A stretch of DNA of 63,591 nucleotides, filler included, from Collodictyon triciliatum (taxonomy: Eukaryota), in the NCBI GenBank assembly GCA_043381765.1. It is 29 parts of 29 records of this genome, joined end to end, with 100 filler letters (N's around TTAATTAATTAA, not from the genome) between each part and the next. Parts side by side here need not be neighbours in the genome. Positions count along the whole stretch, not along the records: positions 33,267 to 35,379 come from JBHJMP010009481.1; 28 more parts are not named here. One strand, given 5' to 3'. The position numbers and the translations under genes are program-made. Below, piece after piece: positions 4,444-43,736 of the stretch (positions are counted from its first letter, which is position 1; every line of letters begins with the position of its first letter). The notes under the pieces were generated by a model. The model saw nothing but the letters and a program-made list of their open reading frames with translations. It searched no databases and was not told where the DNA came from.

Positions 4444-6564
4444 ACAAAATTCAAAGTCATAGTATTCTGGATTCAAGTCAACCTCCAACTCAATCAGACC
4501 AGATTTCGAAATAATGGAAGGACAAAGGTAGCGTTTCGTTTCATCTTGGAGATTGAAAGTTGTTGTGAAATTCATAAAACCAGGAAGAAAATTAGCTGTT
4601 CCGTGATTGGTCGATGTTTTATTCAATCCCAAATACTCAAGCTTTGAAAACCCGATGTATGATTCAGGAATGCTTCCAACAATCGGATTTCCAGTGAGGT
4701 CAAGGGAAGTCCATCTCAATAAATTTGTAAGTTCATCAAGCTTAGTGATGTTATTATTTTTAATACTCAATATTTTCATGTAAAGAAGATTGTTAAATAC
4801 CCTATAATTAAATGCTCCATTCAATTGGTTGTCATCAAGCAAAAGGTTTTCATAAAAATAATCGTAATTGCCCGTTTCTGGTGAGATGAAAACACCAACG
4901 TCTCCTGAAAACGAGTTGTTTCTCAAATCGATGGTGACTAGATTTGGCAGATTCCAGAATAAATCAGGCATGCTTCCAGAAAAATTATTGTGGGATACAA
5001 CGAGTGATTTCAGTTCTAGAAATCCCTGAAAATAGGTTGGGACTGTGCCTTTCATTTTGTTCCAAGACAAGTCGATGTATTTAATTGAAGGCAATGACCA
5101 GTAATTGGGAATAGAACCAATAATTTGGTTTTCGCTCACATCCAGTCTTGTCAGGTTATTCAGATTGAACATCGGTAATGTGCCTGACAGCTTATTTCGG
5201 AACAGTAATATTTCCTTGACTTCGTCGCAATATTTGAAATCTGGAACCTCTCCCTCCAATTGATTATCATAAACAGAAAAAATCTCCAGTTTATGAATAT
5301 ATGAAAAGTTTGGAATTGTGCCTAAAATTACTCATTAATATGAAAGGAAATGTAAAATCAAAAGAAATAGAAAGGGAAAATGAGTAGAAATCACCATTCA
5401 ATCGGTTTCTATCAAGGTAAATTATTTCAATATTTGATATTCCATCGAAGTTTGGAATGGTCCCTGTAATGTAAAGTTAGTTTTCATCAAAAATAAATAA
5501 AATTATTATAATTAACTTACCATTCAATAGATTGATGTAAAGATAAATTCCTAAACCATTTGGAATGCCACTGAAGTTTGGAATCGTTCCTGTAATGTAA
5601 AGTTAGCTTCTTTTTTATATTATATGAAATAAAAATTAAAACTTACCATCCAATTGGTTGTTGTAAAGATGAATTTCTAAAACATTTAGAATCCCACTGA
5701 AGTTTGGAACCGTTCCTGTAATATTAAGTTAGTGTTGCATCAATAATGCATGAAATGATAATTAAAACTTACCATCCAACTGATTGCTGAAAAGATAAAT
5801 TCCTAAAACATTTGGAATTCCACTGAAGTTTGGAACTGTTCCTGTAGTATTAAAATTAGCACTTGTATGCCATCATATTTAATAAAATAGAAAAAACAAA
5901 CCATGAACCTTGCAGCTATAAATTGCAAGAATCAGAACATTTGGCAACGCTGAGAAATCAGGAAGAGTTCCTGACATGAAAAAATCATTAGAATTCAGAA
6001 TAAATCATATTGGAAATTACTTTGTACCTGTAAGTATTTCACTTGAACCAATCCACAATGTATTCAGCGACTGTATTTCAGAAAAATCTGGTATTGTTCC
6101 TTCCAATTCATTCCCATCAATCTCAAGGTGTTCAATTTCCGGCATTCCTTGAAAGTCAGGAATCGTTCCTGTGATTCGATTCACAAAGAGTTTCAGGGAC
6201 GTAATACTAGGGAGATTAAAGTCTGGAAGATTTCCGTAAATGAAGTTGTAACTCATGTCCAAGGAATCCAATAATTGGAGCTTCTCGAAAATTGCAGAGG
6301 CAGCTTCAATGTTACCGTTGAGATTGTTTCCTGACATACTGATTCTGAATATGGGACATGTATTGCTCTACAAATATAAATGAAATAGGTTAAAAATGAA
6401 ATCAAAAGAGATTATTATCATTTCAAGAAATCACCTGATAGTCTTGATCTGAACAGCTCTGATGACACGATATTCCATACCAATCACATATCGGAATACT
6501 TTCATTCTTCCATCCAGTGTTCCGAAACCAATTATCGCCGCCAAGTAAATCATAAAGTTGGACA
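4444..6564 (-). CDS. Plant-type extracellular LRR receptor-like protein (partial, 8 exons)
   Basis: N-cap LYDLLGGDNWFRNTGW..CDWYGISC followed by LxxNxLxGxIP repeats; exons 6435-6564, 6028-6367, five 69-nt exons (5902-5970, 5773-5841, 5647-5715, 5521-5589, 5395-5463) and 4444-5321. Confidence 0.92.
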
Positions 6565-8185: not shown

Positions 8186-9600
8186 TGTCTCATCCCAAGC
8201 TTTTTAGATGTATATTTATCAGCCTGAATCCTTAATAACCGGGGAAAATGAGTGGATGGGCCGTAAAACACAGACATATAGACCAACCGATAGCCAAAAG
8301 CTGAAAGTAAGCCCGAATATTTCAGCTTATTCCCGAAACATCACGCCCTACTGCTCAATATCTCTAACAGAGCTGTGAAAAGGTGCGCGTGTGGTTCTTG
8401 CGACAAAGGAGATTTGGGGAAAGCGTCGTAATATATCCCTCATCACATCCCAGTCCCTGATGCCTTCACAATTAATCAACATGTTGGCATGCTCGCACAA
8501 CAAACTCGCGGTCACTGATTCCTTTCTTGTGATGGCCTATACTCATAAGTTTTTCATACTTGCGTTTGCTTTTTACTGTGCGCCCTTGACCTTCCCTCGT
8601 ATAGTTCCACCCTCTTGAAGTAAAAGTCGAATAAAAATGGAAATTTTGATATAACACCCCCAATTTATAAAGAACACTTTTGATTTATTATCATTTTTAT
8701 TGAGATTTGTTGCTTTCATTTCAGCTTGCTTGAGCGAGAATGGTGTCCACATGGATGGAATGATTTTGAAGATATCATTTGAGATTNNNNNNNNNNNNNN
8801 NNNNNNNNNNNNNNNNNNNNNNNNNNNNNNTTAATTAATTAANNNNNNNNNNNNNNNNNNNNNNNNNNNNNNNNNNNNNNNNNNNNTTTCTTTTTCTTTT
8901 TCTTTTTCTTTTTCTTTTTCTTTTTCTTTTTCTTTTTCTTTTTCTTTTTCTTTTTCTTTTTCTTTTTTTTGATCAAGGCAACAAAGTAACGAGACAAAGA
9001 GCTCTGAAGTTCATGCAAGCGAGAGAAGCGTTCATCTTCTACTCCGAGACGATTCCCTTCGCTTTCTCAGTCGAGTCTCGTAGGCCACCGGCTCCGCCGA
9101 CTCTTATCGACGCGCAACTTGGATTCGATTGTGCGGTGCGGCTCCTTGGCAGAAATCTTGGCAATTTGGGATTCGTGGGTGAATGAAACTCTCCTACGGA
9201 AATGTTGAATCTAACCAGAATTATGGACATCCAAAAAAAAAAAAATTATTTTGGTCAACTTCGGCTATGAGGTCCGCTATGAATAGTGCTCATACATAAA
9301 AAGTATATATTTTTAATTAATTGATTTTGACTCTTTAGGATTTCCGCAAATGAACAACAAATTTGGAATATATTCGGTTGATAAGGGCAAAGAAATGATA
9401 TGGTCTCTATGTGCCAGATTCAGCCACACACGCGACAGGATTGTGCCCAGAGGGACGTGGTGTTGTGGTGTAGCCCACCTTAAATATGCACACTGTTCAT
9501 CTGCTTCTATTCATTTTTGATTGCACTATTAAAAAAATATTTTTTTTCTTTTTATTGCTTTGCGTATAAATTTGAGTGAAGGAAAACTTGCTTCTTGGGA

Positions 9601-13322: not shown

Positions 13323-13612
13323 TGCTGAATCACGCTCGCATTCTTCGCTACTCTGACCGCAAGCGAAGAGAGATGTGGGAATGTGTCGTAAGATATCTCC
13401 CACAGCATATCCAACCCCTGCTACCTACGCAACCAATCAACTAGTTGGGTCGCCCACCTGGCCAACTCGCTATCACTGATTTCTTTCGAGTGCTACCCTC
13501 TCCACAGTAGTGTCTTCTCTTACTCGCGTTTGCTCTCTCCCATGCGCAACTATCTCACCCCTTTGTATGGCATAACCTCTCTACACTTTGAATCGAATAA
13601 AGGGGAAAAAAA
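13323..13612 (+). mobile_element. 3' end of a repeated non-LTR retroelement (ORF C-terminus, 3'UTR, AATAAA)
   Basis: Highly similar copy in reverse orientation at 39566-39805; ends CTTTGAATCGAATAAAGGGGAAAAAAA. Confidence 0.7.
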
Positions 13613-31331: not shown

Positions 31332-33166
31332 ACCGCAAAGGCTCTCCACTATGCCGGACTACGACGAAGTCTGCTTCACACAAGACCCGCAAAGGATCTC
31401 CGCTATGCCGAACTACGACGAAGTCTGCTCCACACAAGACCCGCAAAGGCTCTCCACTATGCCGAACGTCGACGAAGTCTGCCTCACACAAGACCCGCGA
31501 AGGCTCCACTATGCCGGACTGCGACGAAGTCTGCTTCACACAAGACCCGCAAAGGCTGTGCGTTACGCCGGACTGCGACGAAGTCTGCCTCACACAAGAC
31601 CCGCAAAGGCTCTCCACTATGCCGAACGTCGACGAAGTCTGCTTCACACAAGACTCGCAAAGGATCTCCACTATGCCGAACGTCGACGAAGTCTGCTTCA
31701 CACAAGACACACGAAGGATCTCCACTATGCCGAACGTCGACGAAGTCTGCCTCACACACAAGACCCGCGAAGGCTGTGCACTATGCCGGAATACGACGAA
31801 GGCTGCTTCACGCGCAAGACCCGATAAGGTTCCCCACTATGCCGAATGTCGACGCAGTCTGCTCCACGCAAGACCCACAAAGGATCTCCACTATGCCGAA
31901 CGTCGACGAAGTCTGCTCCACACAAGACCCACAAAGGCTCCCCATTATGCCGAACGTCGACGAAGTCTGCTTCACACAAGACCCGCAAAGGCTGTGCGTT
32001 ACGCCGGACTGCGACGAAGTCTGCTTCACACAAGACCCGCGAAGGCTCCCCGTTATGCCGAACGTCGACGAAGTCTGCTTCACACACTAAGACACGCAAA
32101 GGCTCCACTATGCCGGAATACGACGAAGTCTGCTTCACACAAGACCCGCAAAGGCTGTGCGTTACGCCGGACTGCGACGAAGTCTGCTCCACACAAGACC
32201 CGCAAAGGCTCTGCACTATGCCGGACGTCGACGAAGTCTGCTCCACACAAGACCCGCAAAGGCTCTGCACTATGCCGAACGTCGACGAAGTCTGCCTCAC
32301 ACAAGACCCGCAAAGGCTCTCCACTATACCGGACGTCGACGAAGTCTGCTTCGCCCAAGACCCGCAAAGGCTCTCCACTATGCCGAACGTCGACGAAGTC
32401 TGCTTCACGCAAGACCCACAAAGGATCTCCACTATGCTGAACGTCGACGAAGTCTGCTTCACACAAGACCCGCAAAGGATCTCCACTATGCCGAACGTGG
32501 ACGAAGTCTGCCTCACACAAGACCCTCAAAAGCTGTGCGTTATGCCGAACGTCGACGAAGTCCGCTTCACACAAGACCCGCGAAGGCTGTGCGTTATGCC
32601 GGAATATGACGATGTCTACTTCACACACAGAGACGAGCAAAAGCTCTGTACGTTATGCCGGAATATGACGAAGTCTGCTTCACACACAGAGACGAGCAAA
32701 AGCTCTGCACTATGCCGAATGCGACGAAGTCTGCTTCGCCCAAGACCTGCAAAGGCTCTGCACTATGCCCGGATACGAAAACCGTAAGTCTCGTGAAATC
32801 AGAAATTCTATTCTTAGCTACGCAACAAGCACTTTGATTTGTGCAAGCACATACCTAGCAGATGTTTTTGTCATAATTCATATGGAAGAATTTTTACCAT
32901 AAAAGTGAATAATAGAATTTCTCCTGCCAAAAATAGAGCAGTCTGTGTTCGGCTATGGGAACATTTAAAGTCCAATTACTTGTTTATGAAACGACAAAAT
33001 GCTTCGCACCCACTGAGACCTGCAGAGGCTCTGTGCTATGCCCGAATACGACGATGTCTGGTTCACACACACTGAGAACCCAAGAATACTCCACTATGCT
33101 GGAATGTGGCGAAATGTGCTTCACACACAAAACGCAGAAAGACATCAAACTATGCTGGAATACGTT
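31332..33166. repeat. GC-rich 54-bp minisatellite, about 26 core units plus a degenerate tail
   Basis: Unit CACAAGACCCGCAAAGGCTCTCCACTATGCCGAACGTCGACGAAGTCTGCTTCA, with 52- and 56-nt variants. Confidence 0.95.
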
Positions 33167-33266: not shown

Positions 33267-35067
33267 TTTTTTTTTTTTTTTTTTGTACGCTTTAAAGGCT
33301 GTCGGAATAGTTTCACAAGATAGACCCGCAAGTTTAAAACATCCGGGTTTGAGAGACGACATGATGACTTTTTATCTCTATGTTTTTCGATTCCTTTTGT
33401 CCCGATAAGAACACTTTCCGTTGGTCGGACAGTCTCTAGCATTACCGAACTTGGTGAAGCAAATGTTAGCAGCTTATCATAATGACATTAAGGAAAATTT
33501 TGTAAAAAGGTTACTGCGCTTTATAAACCAAACAGTTCCTAAATATGATGATATTACGGAAGCTGTTAAAAAGCCAGAGCTACGAAAGTTAAAAAAAGCC
33601 ATCTTCAAGAATGTCGAAATACCGGAGCAATATCAAGAATGGGCTATAACGCATCTGCATTATATTATTCCCAGCGACATTGTTAATGGTATCGAATATG
33701 ACGTCAAATTCAATACAAATAAGTACATTCCATGCCTGATTTACATGAATCGCATTTTTGAGGACATTGGACACAAACTGCTTCATTCAATCTCTATAAG
33801 AACTAACAATACACCATGCCATATTACTCTAGGTACTGCATGTTTGATAGATCTATTAGCATCAAATGGAAAAACATTATTACTGAATAATATATCAGGA
33901 TGCAAAAAGACCCTGGGATTATTTTTAAATGAAGAAGGGGGTCTTTCATCAAAGATACTGCAATTTTAAATACATGACACAAACAGACGGCTTGGCGGTG
34001 TCATTATTGTTTGGAAAGAAAGGTATTTCAAATTCAAAAATCCTAATTTAGTCAAAAGAAAACCCAAGAATATCTTTATAGACGAACTTTCCGAAGAGCA
34101 TTTATCTTTATAAGCGAAAAATAAATAGTCAGAGTGGACGCAGGTAAGTTTAATTTGGTTTATATGGTGGATGAGGCGGGTAAGAAATTACGTTACACGA
34201 CACACCAAAGAAGACATGATAGCAAATCTCTTAAAAATCATAAAATACTCTTGTGCAAAAAAAAAAGTACAATTCTTCAGTTATATGCATGGCAACAGAT
34301 TTACAAAGTGCTGTTTCTTTTGGTCATATGGCTTTTGAAAAGAATCAGCGGTTTGAGACATTAAGCATATCTTTAATCGATTTAGAGACAGAACTGATTA
34401 AACATAATTCATGCACGGTCGATTATGAAAAAAAATAATCGAAAATATGTATCTATGAAATCAAAAATTCCGGATAGGATTTTTCAGATTTTATGAACAC
34501 TTAACTTTTCGAAAGATGAAATGGAGACTGTATACTAATACAAAAAGAAGTCAACAGTTGTTTATGGACCGAATCGAAAAGACATTTGGCAAGGATGTTG
34601 CACTGGCGTGTGGAAACTGGAGCAGAAAATCTCAGATGAAATATTCTAAGCCATCAATTGGAAGAGGATTACGAAAAATACTATCCAAATGTTTTGAAAT
34701 AGTTATTGTAGATGAATTTTAGAACCTCCAAGATGTGTTTTAACTGCGAAAAAGAACTGGAATATATGAAACTGAAAGGAAATTCAAAGAAAAGTGTATA
34801 GGTGTCTCATATGTAAAGAATGCAATCGCTTAGAAAGCAAACAAAGTGTATTCTTGACAAGGGACTTTAACAGGGCTAAGAATATACTCAAGAAATTATT
34901 TTTTTTACTCCTTCAAAAAATGCATACGCCTTCCTCTAAAAAATAGACTGTCGGGTCTTTCCTAGCAGTCTTCGCCACTACACAATCTTTGTGAAAACAG
35001 TGGTGAGATCTTAAATACTAGCGCACCAGGTTTACCATTCGTTCGATGGATATACTCCTTCTAGTAA
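33267..35067 (+). mobile_element. Fanzor1 (eukaryotic TnpB) element, pseudogenised copy A
   Basis: Across frameshifts: HNDIKENFVKRLLRFIN, QTDGLAVS, VDAGK (RuvC-I), LRYTTHQRR, GNWS..PSIGRGLRK, VDEFRTSKMCFNC (RuvC-II plus Zn finger), CKEC, TRDFN.AKNI (RuvC-III). Confidence 0.9.
34945..35067 (+). ncRNA. Predicted Fanzor omegaRNA scaffold, copy A
   Basis: Non-coding segment conserved with copy B; stems AGACTG/CAGTCT, TCGCCACT/AGTGGTGA and TACTAG/CTAGTA. Confidence 0.65.
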
Positions 35068-35094
35068 TGAACTATTTTTAAAGCATACGAAACT

Positions 35095-35379
35095 ATGAGG
35101 GTTCGATTTTACAGTACTCAGGATACACAGCCAACCACAGCCGTCCTGAACAACAAAGGAGAATGGCGCTCACGACTCCCCATCTCATACGGAGCGCCGT
35201 CGCCATTTATCTTTCGCCTGAAGAACCAAAGGCGGTCCATTACACCTGACTCTCCGCAATTCTCGATCGCCATGACGTACTCCAAGCTGTTTCGATATAA
35301 AATCATCAGTCCGAATCCCTACAAACCGGAGAAGATGAGTCGTTGGGCCGAAACTATAGGCATTATAGACCCGCCGATA
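35095..35379 (+). mobile_element. Probable fragment of a LINE ORF2 post-RT region
   Basis: Intronless, GC-richer open frame (..YSKLFRYKIISPNPYKPEKMSRW..) starting abruptly after the Fanzor end. Confidence 0.3.
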
Positions 35380-38327: not shown

Positions 38328-38450
38328 TTACTAGAAGAGGCATGCCATTCTTTCGATTGGTAAACCTGGTTCGCTAGTATCCAAAGTCTCATCACTTTTT
38401 TCACAGAGGTCGTGTAGTGGTGAAGACTTTCAGGAAATACCAGACAGCCT
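38328..38450 (-). ncRNA. Predicted Fanzor omegaRNA scaffold, copy B
   Basis: Aligns by eye to 34945-35067; similarity ends at CTTCTAGTAA. Confidence 0.62.
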
Positions 38451-39557
38451 GTTGTTTTTTAGCGAATTGTATACATATTTTGAAGGATTAAAAGAACTTT
38501 GTTGAGTATATTATTAGCGCTCTTAAAGTCCCTTGTCAAGAATACGCTTTGTTTGCTTTCTGACCGATTGGATTCTTTACATATGAGACATCTATATACA
38601 TTATTTTTTGTATTTCCTTTCAGTGTCATATATTCCAGTTCTTTTTTGTAGTTACAACACATCTTGGAGTTATAAATTCATCTACGCTAACTGGTTCAAT
38701 ACGTTTGGATAATATTTTCGTAATACTCTATTGATTGATGGCATAAAATGTTTCATCTGACATTTTCTGCTCCAGTCTCCATACACCAGCATGACATCCT
38801 TATCAAATGTCTTTTCGATTCGGTCCATAAATAACTGTTCACTTCTTTTTGCATTAGCATACTGTCTCCATCTCATCTTTCGAAAAGTTACTTGTTCATA
38901 AAATATGGATAGTTCTATCTGGTATCTTGGTTCCATAGATACATATTTCCGAAATTTTCATAATCGACCGTGCGTGATTTATGTTTACTCAGTTCTGTCT
39001 CTAAATCGATTAAAGATGCTCTTGATGTCTCAAACCGCTGATTCTCTTCAAAAGACATGTGACCAAAAGAAACAGCACTTTTTAAACCTGTTGCCATGTA
39101 TATCCCTGAAGCATTGTACTTTTCTTTTTTTTTTCTCGCACAAGAGTATTTTGTGATTTCCAAGAGATTTGCTATCATGTCTTCTTTGGTGTGCCGTGCA
39201 ACGTAATTGCCTGTCTCATCCACCATGTAAACAATTTTAAACTTGCCTGCGTCCACTCCAACTATATTTTTTCGCTAATAAAGATACCCGCTCTTCGGAA
39301 AGTTCATGTATATGGACATATTTTTGATTTTTTTGTTTATATTTGATTTTTGAATTTGAAATACCTTCCTTCTCAAACAATAATGACACCGCCAACCCGT
39401 CTCTTTGTATCATGTATTTAAAATTGTAGTCTGTTCGATGAAAACACCTCTTGTTTATTTCAAAGAAATTATCACATAGTGTCTCTTTGCATTTTGATAT
39501 ATTCTTCATTAATGGTTTTTCAGATAATGCCAATAGACCTATCAAACATGCGGTATC
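38328..39557 (-). mobile_element. Fanzor1 element, pseudogenised copy B (5' part interrupted by a retroelement)
   Basis: Colinear with copy A: DTACLI, RDGLAVS, GVDAGK, YGDWS, VDEF, TRDFKSANNI, and the same 3' non-coding scaffold. Confidence 0.9.
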
Positions 39558-39565
39558 AAAAAAAA

Positions 39566-39805
39566 TTCCTTTATTCGATTCAAAGTGTAGCGAGGTTATG
39601 TGATACAAAGGGGCGGGATGGGAGCGCATGGGAGAGAGCAAACGCGAGTAGGAGAAGACACTACCGTGGAGAGGGTAGCACTGGGAAGAAATCAGTGATA
39701 GCGAGTTGGTCAGGTGGGCGTCCCAACTGGTTGATTGGTTGCGTGGGTAGCAGGGGTTGGATATGCTGTGGGAGATATCGCACGACACATTCCCACATCT
39801 CCCTC
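39566..39805 (-). mobile_element. 3' end of the same retroelement family as 13323-13612, abutting the truncated Fanzor B ORF
   Basis: Reverse complement closely matches 13368-13605. Confidence 0.75.
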
Positions 39806-43427: not shown

Positions 43428-43736
43428 TTACCATAAATAATTCCAAGACCAATATAAGGCACTGGTAGGGTCATCCTTAATTTTTTCATACTGAGAACCA
43501 AAGCGTGACCTGAAATTATCCAGGCGCTTTTTATCATTATGGTCTAAGTGTGAGTACTGTTTAAACTTATCTTTGTAATGCTCCATCGATACATCCCCAA
43601 ATCTCACAGGGGCTGATAGCAGATATTTGTCTCCCATTTTGCTTGCAGTCCACGCGACATATTTATGTTTGCCATCGTCCGCTTTTTTAATTCTATACAA
43701 TCTTTTGTCAATTTTTATATCCTTGTACCAGTCCAT
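43428..43736 (-). CDS. Tlr6F-like / DUF5754-like small viral protein
   Basis: KHKY..VRFGD..MEHYKD..HLDHNDKKRLDNFRSR..SALYWSWNYLW, the pattern I recognise from PLV/virophage/NCLDV small proteins. Confidence 0.75.
   Translation of the reverse strand: MDWYKDIKIDKRLYRIKKADDGKHKYVAWTASKMGDKYLLSAPVRFGDVSMEHYKDKFKQYSHLDHNDKKRLDNFRSRFGSQYEKIKDDPTSALYWSWNYLW

Follow-up and report, generated by a model that had tools for sequence, protein, structure and literature searches.

Fanzor guide RNAs and Fanzor-carrying Helitrons are both known already. In the available text of the reports on SpuFz1 (Saito 2023, PMC10432273) and on GtFz1 and PpFz1 (Xu 2024, PMC11423790), the omegaRNA is 75–150 nt long, its scaffold lies at the right end of the element and no pseudoknot is needed; the last stem closes at the guide (PMC10432273), the RNAs vary freely behind the first stem (PMC11423790), and they are known from small-RNA sequencing and from structures. 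The Fanzor1 reRNA of SfAV (Yoon 2023, PMC10711439) is described, in the portion available, as having a three-stem shape and as building fixed flanking bases into its scaffold (from the TSD, or the IS607 right-flanking base), its carrier being a TIR/TSD element. Among Helitrons, CRe-1, 2, and 3 (CrFNuc) of Chlamydomonas (Bao and Jurka 2013, PMC3627910; Jiang 2023, PMC10530073) are presented as non-autonomous elements that carry a Fanzor1 gene, have lost internal segments while keeping their 3′ ends intact, and possess a structured 3′ RNA; they are Helitron2 elements, with ATIRs, TTTT targets, frequent TSDs, introns, and a 3′ end homologous to that of the parent Helitron (PMC3627910). Helraiser/Helibat1 (Grabundzija 2016, PMC4778049), an element without Fanzor, has TC and CTAG termini, a palindrome ~11 nt before its end and an AT-rich 3′ flank; its hairpin is assigned a terminator role in the text available, and de novo ends are said there to follow terminator bypass. 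In the partly available literature on Fanzor with Helitron, Helitron1, or RepHel, the cases found are Helitron2 (CRe) and none is Helitron1, although Repbase entries and supplements may contain one; a review, in its available part, states that Fanzor in Helitrons implies an unexplained donor-site fate and cites further cases in Repbase (PMC13565253).

The locus described here lies in a 63,591-nt stretch of Collodictyon triciliatum DNA (referred to hereafter as the window), a string of short contigs from a genome of 75 Mb. Two broken Fanzor1 genes with the same 3′ end are found in it: copy A (33268–34946, plus strand), disrupted by stops and frameshifts, with its 5′ side lost at the contig start, and copy B (38331–39555, minus strand), interrupted at 39555 by another repeat. 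We put at roughly 70% the probability that the stretch behind the copy A gene is the right end of an old, dead, non-autonomous Helitron1 of ~3.7 kb that carried Fanzor1, with scaffold and terminator in one; the same 120 bases, a length within the range given above for SpuFz1, GtFz1, and PpFz1, seem to have served both as guide-RNA scaffold and as transposon stop signal.

Searches of the genome returned 318 candidates for the 3′ region of the repeat and 386 for the protein piece; about 100 distinct copies were analysed, a non-random sample picked by similarity to window pieces, and related copies are also present in contigs from four DNA sequencing runs, while no RNA run was listed as containing the stretch. 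Full copies measure 3.4–4.2 kb, and deletion forms of 1.3–1.9 kb retain both ends, internal deletion beside an intact 3′ end being a trait shared with the CRe elements. General 5′ truncation was rejected, since many of the short copies either retain both ends around an internal deletion or owe their length to a contig end or to an interrupting repeat. Divergence is level across the three codon positions (0.069, 0.073, and 0.066) and the tree of copies is a star; the family is therefore the product of a single burst of copying by one master lineage, followed by neutral decay.

The gene is a Fanzor1, nearest to PpFz1, SpuFz1, and GtFz1, as placed through relatives (P0007, alignment A2) that are 64% identical to the family consensus: A profile of P0007 and 27 relatives matched these three alone in the PDB (E 1e-56 to 7e-42), and the predicted fold of P0007 likewise agrees best with them. 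The majority consensus of 20 copies spans ~645 aa, with individual copies 88–92% identical to it, and is 64% identical over 655 columns to the intact metagenomic protein P0004. It carries VDAGK, DEFRTSK, a C4 zinc finger, and TRD, retaining all three RuvC acids, and thereby displays the Fanzor1 order D-x-[TS][TS]xx–C4 zinc finger–RD with RuvC D/E/D in a protein of 600–700 aa. As the three RuvC residues and the zinc finger are kept, the master copy was probably active. In copy A (plus strand), the RuvC-I Asp codon lies at 34137–34139 (VDAGK, with DPG in intact relatives), the RuvC-II Glu codon at 34714–34716 (DEF-RTSK, followed by a frameshift and then by the C4 zinc finger), and the RuvC-III Asp codon at 34863–34865 (TRD). 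No intact Fanzor was present among the 68 scored of 1130 candidates, every long match containing stops, and a Pfam search assigned no family to the Fanzor proteins. A 33-aa RuvC insertion (alignment A2, columns ~465–497) is present in P0004, P0007, and the Collodictyon family and absent from the other 26 relatives; in a midpoint-rooted quick tree, the consensus pairs with P0004 (support 100) and adjoins the clade of the two viral proteins carried by mariner elements (86).

Between RuvC-III and the element boundary lies a structured non-coding end with a variable flank behind it, the arrangement that marks a Fanzor1 omegaRNA. In copy A (plus strand), it begins with hairpin 1 (34945–34971), preceded by an A-run-C/T motif as in viral relatives, and continues with stem 2 (34972–35006), which has an inner hairpin and an A-rich bulge and whose outer helix is TCACC/GGTGA (TGACC/GGTCA, GTCT/AGAC, or GTTC/GAAC in viral relatives). 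The linker that follows (35007–35016) reads TTGGAT in the family majority and TTGAT in viral relatives, and is mutated in copy A. Behind it, ACTAG (35017–35021) is the predicted 5′ arm of a closing stem, being complementary to CTAG and the next T. A terminal palindrome (35033–35051) would supply both a terminator-type hairpin and the distal part of the last scaffold stem; in the family this is a hairpin of 8-bp stem and 4-nt loop that stands ~10 nt ahead of CTAG and has become worn in copy A. CTAG itself, the right end of the element (35061–35064; of CTRR form), is exact in 59 of 94 copies.

The sequence-only reading had let similarity run to CTAGTAA, where the alignment of copies A and B also stops (142 of 188 positions identical over the 3′ region; copy B span 39555–38328, minus strand), and in doing so overshot the end by 2 nt. 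Among the 59 copies with exact CTAG, T follows in 56, but A occupies the second position in only 30 and the third in only 28, so the AA common to A and B is AT-rich host DNA and the element boundary is CTAG|T. The scaffold and right end of copy B (38331–38450, minus strand) conform to this, with CTAG at 38334–38331 and T after it. We take the T at 35065 (T in 56/59 and 75/86 copies) as the target-site T and predict it to be the last scaffold base, in the manner of the SfAV reRNA with its built-in flanking base (PMC10711439, available text), except that here the fixed base would be the target T of a Helitron in place of one contributed by a TIR/TSD element. The host flank at 35066–35082 is AT-rich and copy-specific, and would be the putative guide source by analogy with Fanzor1 (PMC10432273).

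The right flanks of A and B differ, as had been claimed from the two copies, and the wider claim of copy-specific guides holds for most copies; 3 of 98 (L040, L053, and L129) have a common right flank, over 200 nt in L053 and L129 and ~85 nt in L040, which represents either read-through transduction or segmental duplication. The conserved stretch had further been placed after the ORF. This is so in copy A, where the codon at 34944–34946 is TAG (29 of 97 copies), but in the 52 of 97 copies with CAG the frame extends 16 codons further, into the scaffold, and its tail aligns with that of intact P0004; an overlap of similar kind, 17 aa, is described for GtFz1 (PMC11423790, available text). All stems named at that stage are present (34945–34971, 34972–35006, and 35016–35021 with 35061–35066), and the strongest terminal hairpin of the family was missing from the list. 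The copy A fold has a z-score of −3.06 (0 of 200 shuffles as good); that of copy B has −1.33 (19 of 200) and a different shape. A closing stem of 5 bp appears in the predicted fold of copy A and is absent from the family-majority fold. The predicted scaffold has the three-stem shape of the SfAV reRNA and, as in SpuFz1, GtFz1, and PpFz1, would sit at the element right end with its last stem closing at the guide; Spu-1 has inverted repeats, whereas the Collodictyon element ends in hairpin-CTAG.

Covariation among genomic copies, proposed earlier as a check on the scaffold, is not seen: The 98 copies hold 10 compensatory changes against 17.5 expected, and paired and unpaired sites have diverged equally (9.5% and 9.2%). 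Such covariation is not expected of copies that decay neutrally, and by the same token differences between A and B prove nothing; the pair noted earlier as G-U in one and A-U in the other differs by a one-sided transition found in 17 of 98 copies, and a further pair of its stem is broken in B. A GGTCT/AGACC pseudoknot was tried and rejected (one compensatory copy, L153, against 0.3 expected), the viral alignment explaining those bases otherwise. An Rfam search gave no match at E ≤ 1.

Evidence for the fold comes instead from relatives outside the family. The next relatives of the protein (38–47% identical to P0004/P0007) are mostly found in giant-virus bins, and in the closest viral group the gene is followed, in order, by an A-run-C motif, an 11–12-bp hairpin, a stem with inner hairpin and A-rich bulge, and TTGAT; in a more distant viral group hairpin 1 is weak or missing. 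Across five close viral tails (few and related sequences), 5 of 24 pairs have changed on both sides with 97.5% paired, a level reached in 0 of 500 shuffles. A covariance model was built from these five tails only, as MAFFT misaligned the divergent viral tails. Run over the 63.6 kb of the window, it ranked copy A first (E 7e-4) and copy B second (E 0.013) among 17 matches, and a sequence-only control model recovered neither. Of 12 further copies, it picked out the right end in 10 at E ≤ 0.14, in 7 of them at E < 0.01; a held-out viral tail (L242) scored E 6e-9, and two Fanzor-less sister Helitrons gave no match. The E-values are rough and the model is loose: It misses one copy (L048), barely finds another (L031) and, in two more, also scores a pair of hairpins lying upstream of the gene (L036, E 0.0015; L050, E 0.028). 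Position and the matching protein tail thus carry part of the scaffold argument, the model not being sharp. The upstream stretches (L036:2629–2710 and L050:2755–2837, both minus strand), 90–200 nt before the Fanzor start codon, may be 5′ UTR structure or chance.

The viral tails also inform on the closing stem. In most of the distant ones, TTTACAC behind the linker pairs with the element's own terminus, while the predicted closing stem of the closest group begins further on; ACTAG in the Collodictyon family occupies the place of the viral arm that pairs with the viral end. Two members of the viral set (L161 and L163) encode a DDE_3 transposase and belong to Tc1/mariner elements whose Fanzor1 protein is 44–47% identical to P0004/P0007; their hairpin 1, stem 2, and linker are homologous to the Collodictyon scaffold, but they have TIRs of ~30 nt, which the closing stem uses. 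A TACACC-type motif lies upstream in 60 of 105 viral loci, mostly as a 30-nt mirror of the right end and in some cases by chance. A loose DNA pattern tried as a relative finder in viral contigs returned mostly unrelated loci. The viral loci (L161–L319) make up a large family of intact, TIR-bounded Fanzor1 elements from giant-virus bins whose 3′ RNA is conserved and covaries; they are candidates for a new RNA family model. Given its position behind a Fanzor1 gene and its structural homology to covarying viral tails, the omegaRNA-like scaffold proposed from the two copies stands, and we judge it very probable that the 3′ stretch is the relic of a real omegaRNA-type scaffold, a prediction here where the SpuFz1, GtFz1, and PpFz1 RNAs were sequenced and solved.

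We next consider the carrier, which on the sequence evidence is quite likely a Helitron1-derived element, with all copies seen being dead. Its 3′ end has the Helitron1 form, a CTRR end with a palindrome before it. The genome encodes a RepHel (L094, G000:C6377) with STPR, Helitron_like_N, and PIF1, in a frame of 1194 codons including assembly gaps that is stop-free in the sequenced parts; its nearest solved relative is Helraiser (E 3e-42 and 3e-30), and it is possibly a young autonomous Helitron1. Sisters of it stand in tandem arrays, one of which (L551) has a repeated 23-nt 5′ terminus. A decayed RepHel promoter and the first ~110 codons lie inside five long Fanzor copies (L136, L043, L581, L106, and L087; DNA identity 72–80% in the first four), and Fanzor-less sister Helitrons hold the same relic and end in hairpin-CTAG|T (T after CTAG in 27 of 29 sister ends). 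Five sisters with head-to-tail CTAG|TCTATAC junctions fix the 17-nt 5′ terminus as TCTATACAATAAATTTG, matched at 17, 16, and 15 of 17 positions by the Fanzor copies L066, L039, and L064; two complete short sisters have no duplication. The subterminal block that precedes the terminator in sisters was found in 19 of 29 testable Fanzor copies, and 38 copies read T-tract-CGGT-cassette where sisters have T-tract-CGGT-hairpin-CTAG, indicating that the Fanzor cassette replaces the sister terminator. In L586 a sister end abuts the 5′ end of a Fanzor copy. The RepHel relics and the sister blocks and ends bear out the Helitron-type 3′ end, which had been mentioned only in passing.

Among 3 Helitron_like_N and 7 PIF1 loci, none was seen to combine a whole RepHel with Fanzor, and no sampled sister element matches the 600 nt that follow the 5′ terminus. 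By inspection, neither end has Helitron2 features (ATIRs, 5′ hairpin, TT targets). The likeness to the CRe elements, also non-autonomous Helitrons with Fanzor1 and a structured 3′ RNA, would thus go together with a difference in type: The Collodictyon element appears as Helitron1, with apparent TC...CTAG|T termini, a Helraiser-like RepHel, no introns in the family consensus, and a 3′ end that is not the parent's. Helraiser resembles it in the CTAG terminus and, where a 5′ start is recognizable, the TC terminus, in the palindrome before the end and in AT-rich targets, the right flanks of Fanzor copies being AT-rich as well (PMC4778049, available text), and differs in that the Collodictyon element is non-autonomous with badly preserved 5′ termini.

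This erosion leaves some room, in our view a small share, for a different carrier: a genuine Fanzor1 omegaRNA relic in an unclassified element that, like MCi-2, makes TSDs and has no inverted ends, with the Helitron pieces brought in by nested insertion. Over the first 13 nt of the Helitron 5′ terminus, most full-length copies match poorly, at 1 to 13 positions (~6 on average); a TCTATA-like start is recognizable in 5 of 18 and clear in 3, and an inner A|TTTG may be where the eroded copies begin, with A at −1 in 16 of 18. Two copies (L105 and L158) look TSD-flanked, with apparent, imperfect duplications of 13–20 nt, and the nearest relatives among viruses are TIR elements that encode a DDE_3 transposase. 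Duplication tests at three lengths gave p 0.18, 0.05, and 0.02 (with several wrong anchors), and p 0.09 for 18 hand-anchored copies; split by subgroup, they show no signal in 28 truncated copies (p 0.74) or in 5 with an intact 5′ terminus (p 0.54), and p 0.03 in the eroded ones (a post-hoc division with anchors set by eye). A regular TSD, which Helitron1 insertion at A|T would not produce, is unsupported overall. Right flanks moreover resemble the Helitron 5′ terminus, a likeness that can mimic duplication: L100 has an intact 5′ terminus, yet 9 of 11 positions are alike. No inverted repeat was seen between the ends and no viral left TIR region was matched upstream of the gene, on which grounds Tc1/mariner was rejected, whereas both termini and the AT-rich right flank match the sister Helitrons. 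No empty sites were found among the sequence stretches compared. A perfect, AT-rich palindrome (~40 nt) borders L140 on the left, and L581 has half of this palindrome at its own left flank.

A less probable alternative accepts the Helitron1 carrier and disputes the RNA: The hairpins would be DNA signals only, a de novo Helitron terminator at a passively captured Fanzor gene from which no guide RNA was made. The terminal palindrome does behave as a DNA hairpin. Its loop reads GAAA in 68 of 98 copies, the reverse complement TTTC in 26 (copy A is one of these inverted forms) and otherwise in 4, with the forms scattered over the star tree (24 changes against 22.8 for shuffled labels, at least 6 of them forced by supported branches); this scatter rules out loop orientation as a subfamily marker, and such repeated inversion means that the palindrome folds back on itself as DNA, either when the element transposes or when it is replicated later. 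None of the common loop variants of the other hairpins is an inversion, confining this behaviour to the terminal one. It fits a terminator role without proving one. That the family lacks covariation or extra conservation, and that new ends arise readily in Helitrons (PMC4778049, available text), would suit a DNA-only reading too. One hairpin is enough for a terminator, however, and yet an upstream two-stem module homologous to viral Fanzor tails is present, with the ACTAG arm at the position of the viral arm that pairs with the viral end; the RuvC residues and zinc finger of the consensus likewise point to a master that was probably active. We therefore regard DNA-only signals as doubtful.

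Least probable by some way is that a Fanzor-made break aided integration in some copies, with ragged 5′ ends and variable duplications as the outcome, a possibility discussed for CRe-1/2/3 (where TSDs are described, in the text available, only where the 5′ terminus is lost and as rarer in old families; PMC3627910), because, beside the ragged ends themselves and 2 of 13 full-length copies without terminus that score as duplications (p 0.03–0.07), 0 of 28 truncated copies reach that score and the subgroup was picked after the data were seen.

Under the preferred reading, a Helitron1-borne scaffold that doubles as terminator, transcription would continue beyond both the Fanzor frame and CTAG, and the RNA would adopt hairpin 1, stem 2, and a closing stem whose last base is the target T. 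Its guide would be the ~15 nt of host flank that follow, directing the nuclease back to its own site when the element is missing there, for cleavage by analogy with characterized Fanzor1. In DNA, the last hairpin and CTAG would act as rolling-circle terminator, read by RepHel supplied in trans. As to how this arose, a Fanzor cassette may have entered a RepHel-deleted Helitron at the first arm of the hairpin that served as its terminator, and that terminator would have been lost; a new end would have arisen at the cassette tail, hairpin-CTAG replacing a mariner-type inverted-repeat end and ACTAG replacing the 5′ arm of the closing stem, after which one master lineage would have given rise to several hundred copies that later decayed neutrally.

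The origin of the cassette is a more tentative matter. We suggest, as a possibility that we hold at somewhat less than even odds, that a canonical Helitron1 received it from a giant-virus element of mariner type and that the guide RNA was rebuilt on arrival, its closing stem now pairing with CTAG and T and its dispensable distal hairpin serving as terminator. A TIR ancestor would be the simpler reading, TIR elements also being found at 38–40% identity. In this family an exchange of transposon ends can be traced while the core of the scaffold stays conserved, which makes it a tangible example for the proposal that Fanzor1 RNAs recode host termini. It also bears on the question, raised in the available part of the review cited above (PMC13565253), of what would make a transposon that moves by copy-out and restores its donor hold on to a homing nuclease; if the reading is true, several hundred Fanzor-bearing copies would imply that Helitron1 donor sites were sometimes emptied and refilled by RNA-guided homing. 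Its value is limited in that all copies seen are dead, with intact P0004 as a usable handle.

Several other repeats and frames were noted along the way. A ~430-nt repeat ending in AATAAA and an A-run, which looks like a retroelement tail, sits in the A-tracts of many Fanzor copies (window 39556–39805, in copy B, and 13367–13603; also L022, L037, and L055). Another repeat begins ~65 nt behind copy A (35131–35379, and again at 8195–8292) and is deep in freshwater metagenome contigs. Two frames on the minus strand of the window, of 102 aa (43428–43736) and 211 aa (61976–62611), gave no match in a Pfam search; the former may resemble giant-virus or virophage proteins, and the latter may resemble the tail of a non-LTR reverse transcriptase. 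Between two Helitron remnants in L121 (G000:C1887, reverse strand 4965–6563) lies a 532-codon host frame with histidine clusters, which may be desaturase-like. Window positions 31350–32780 hold a long minisatellite of ~49-nt GC-rich units that is open in several frames.
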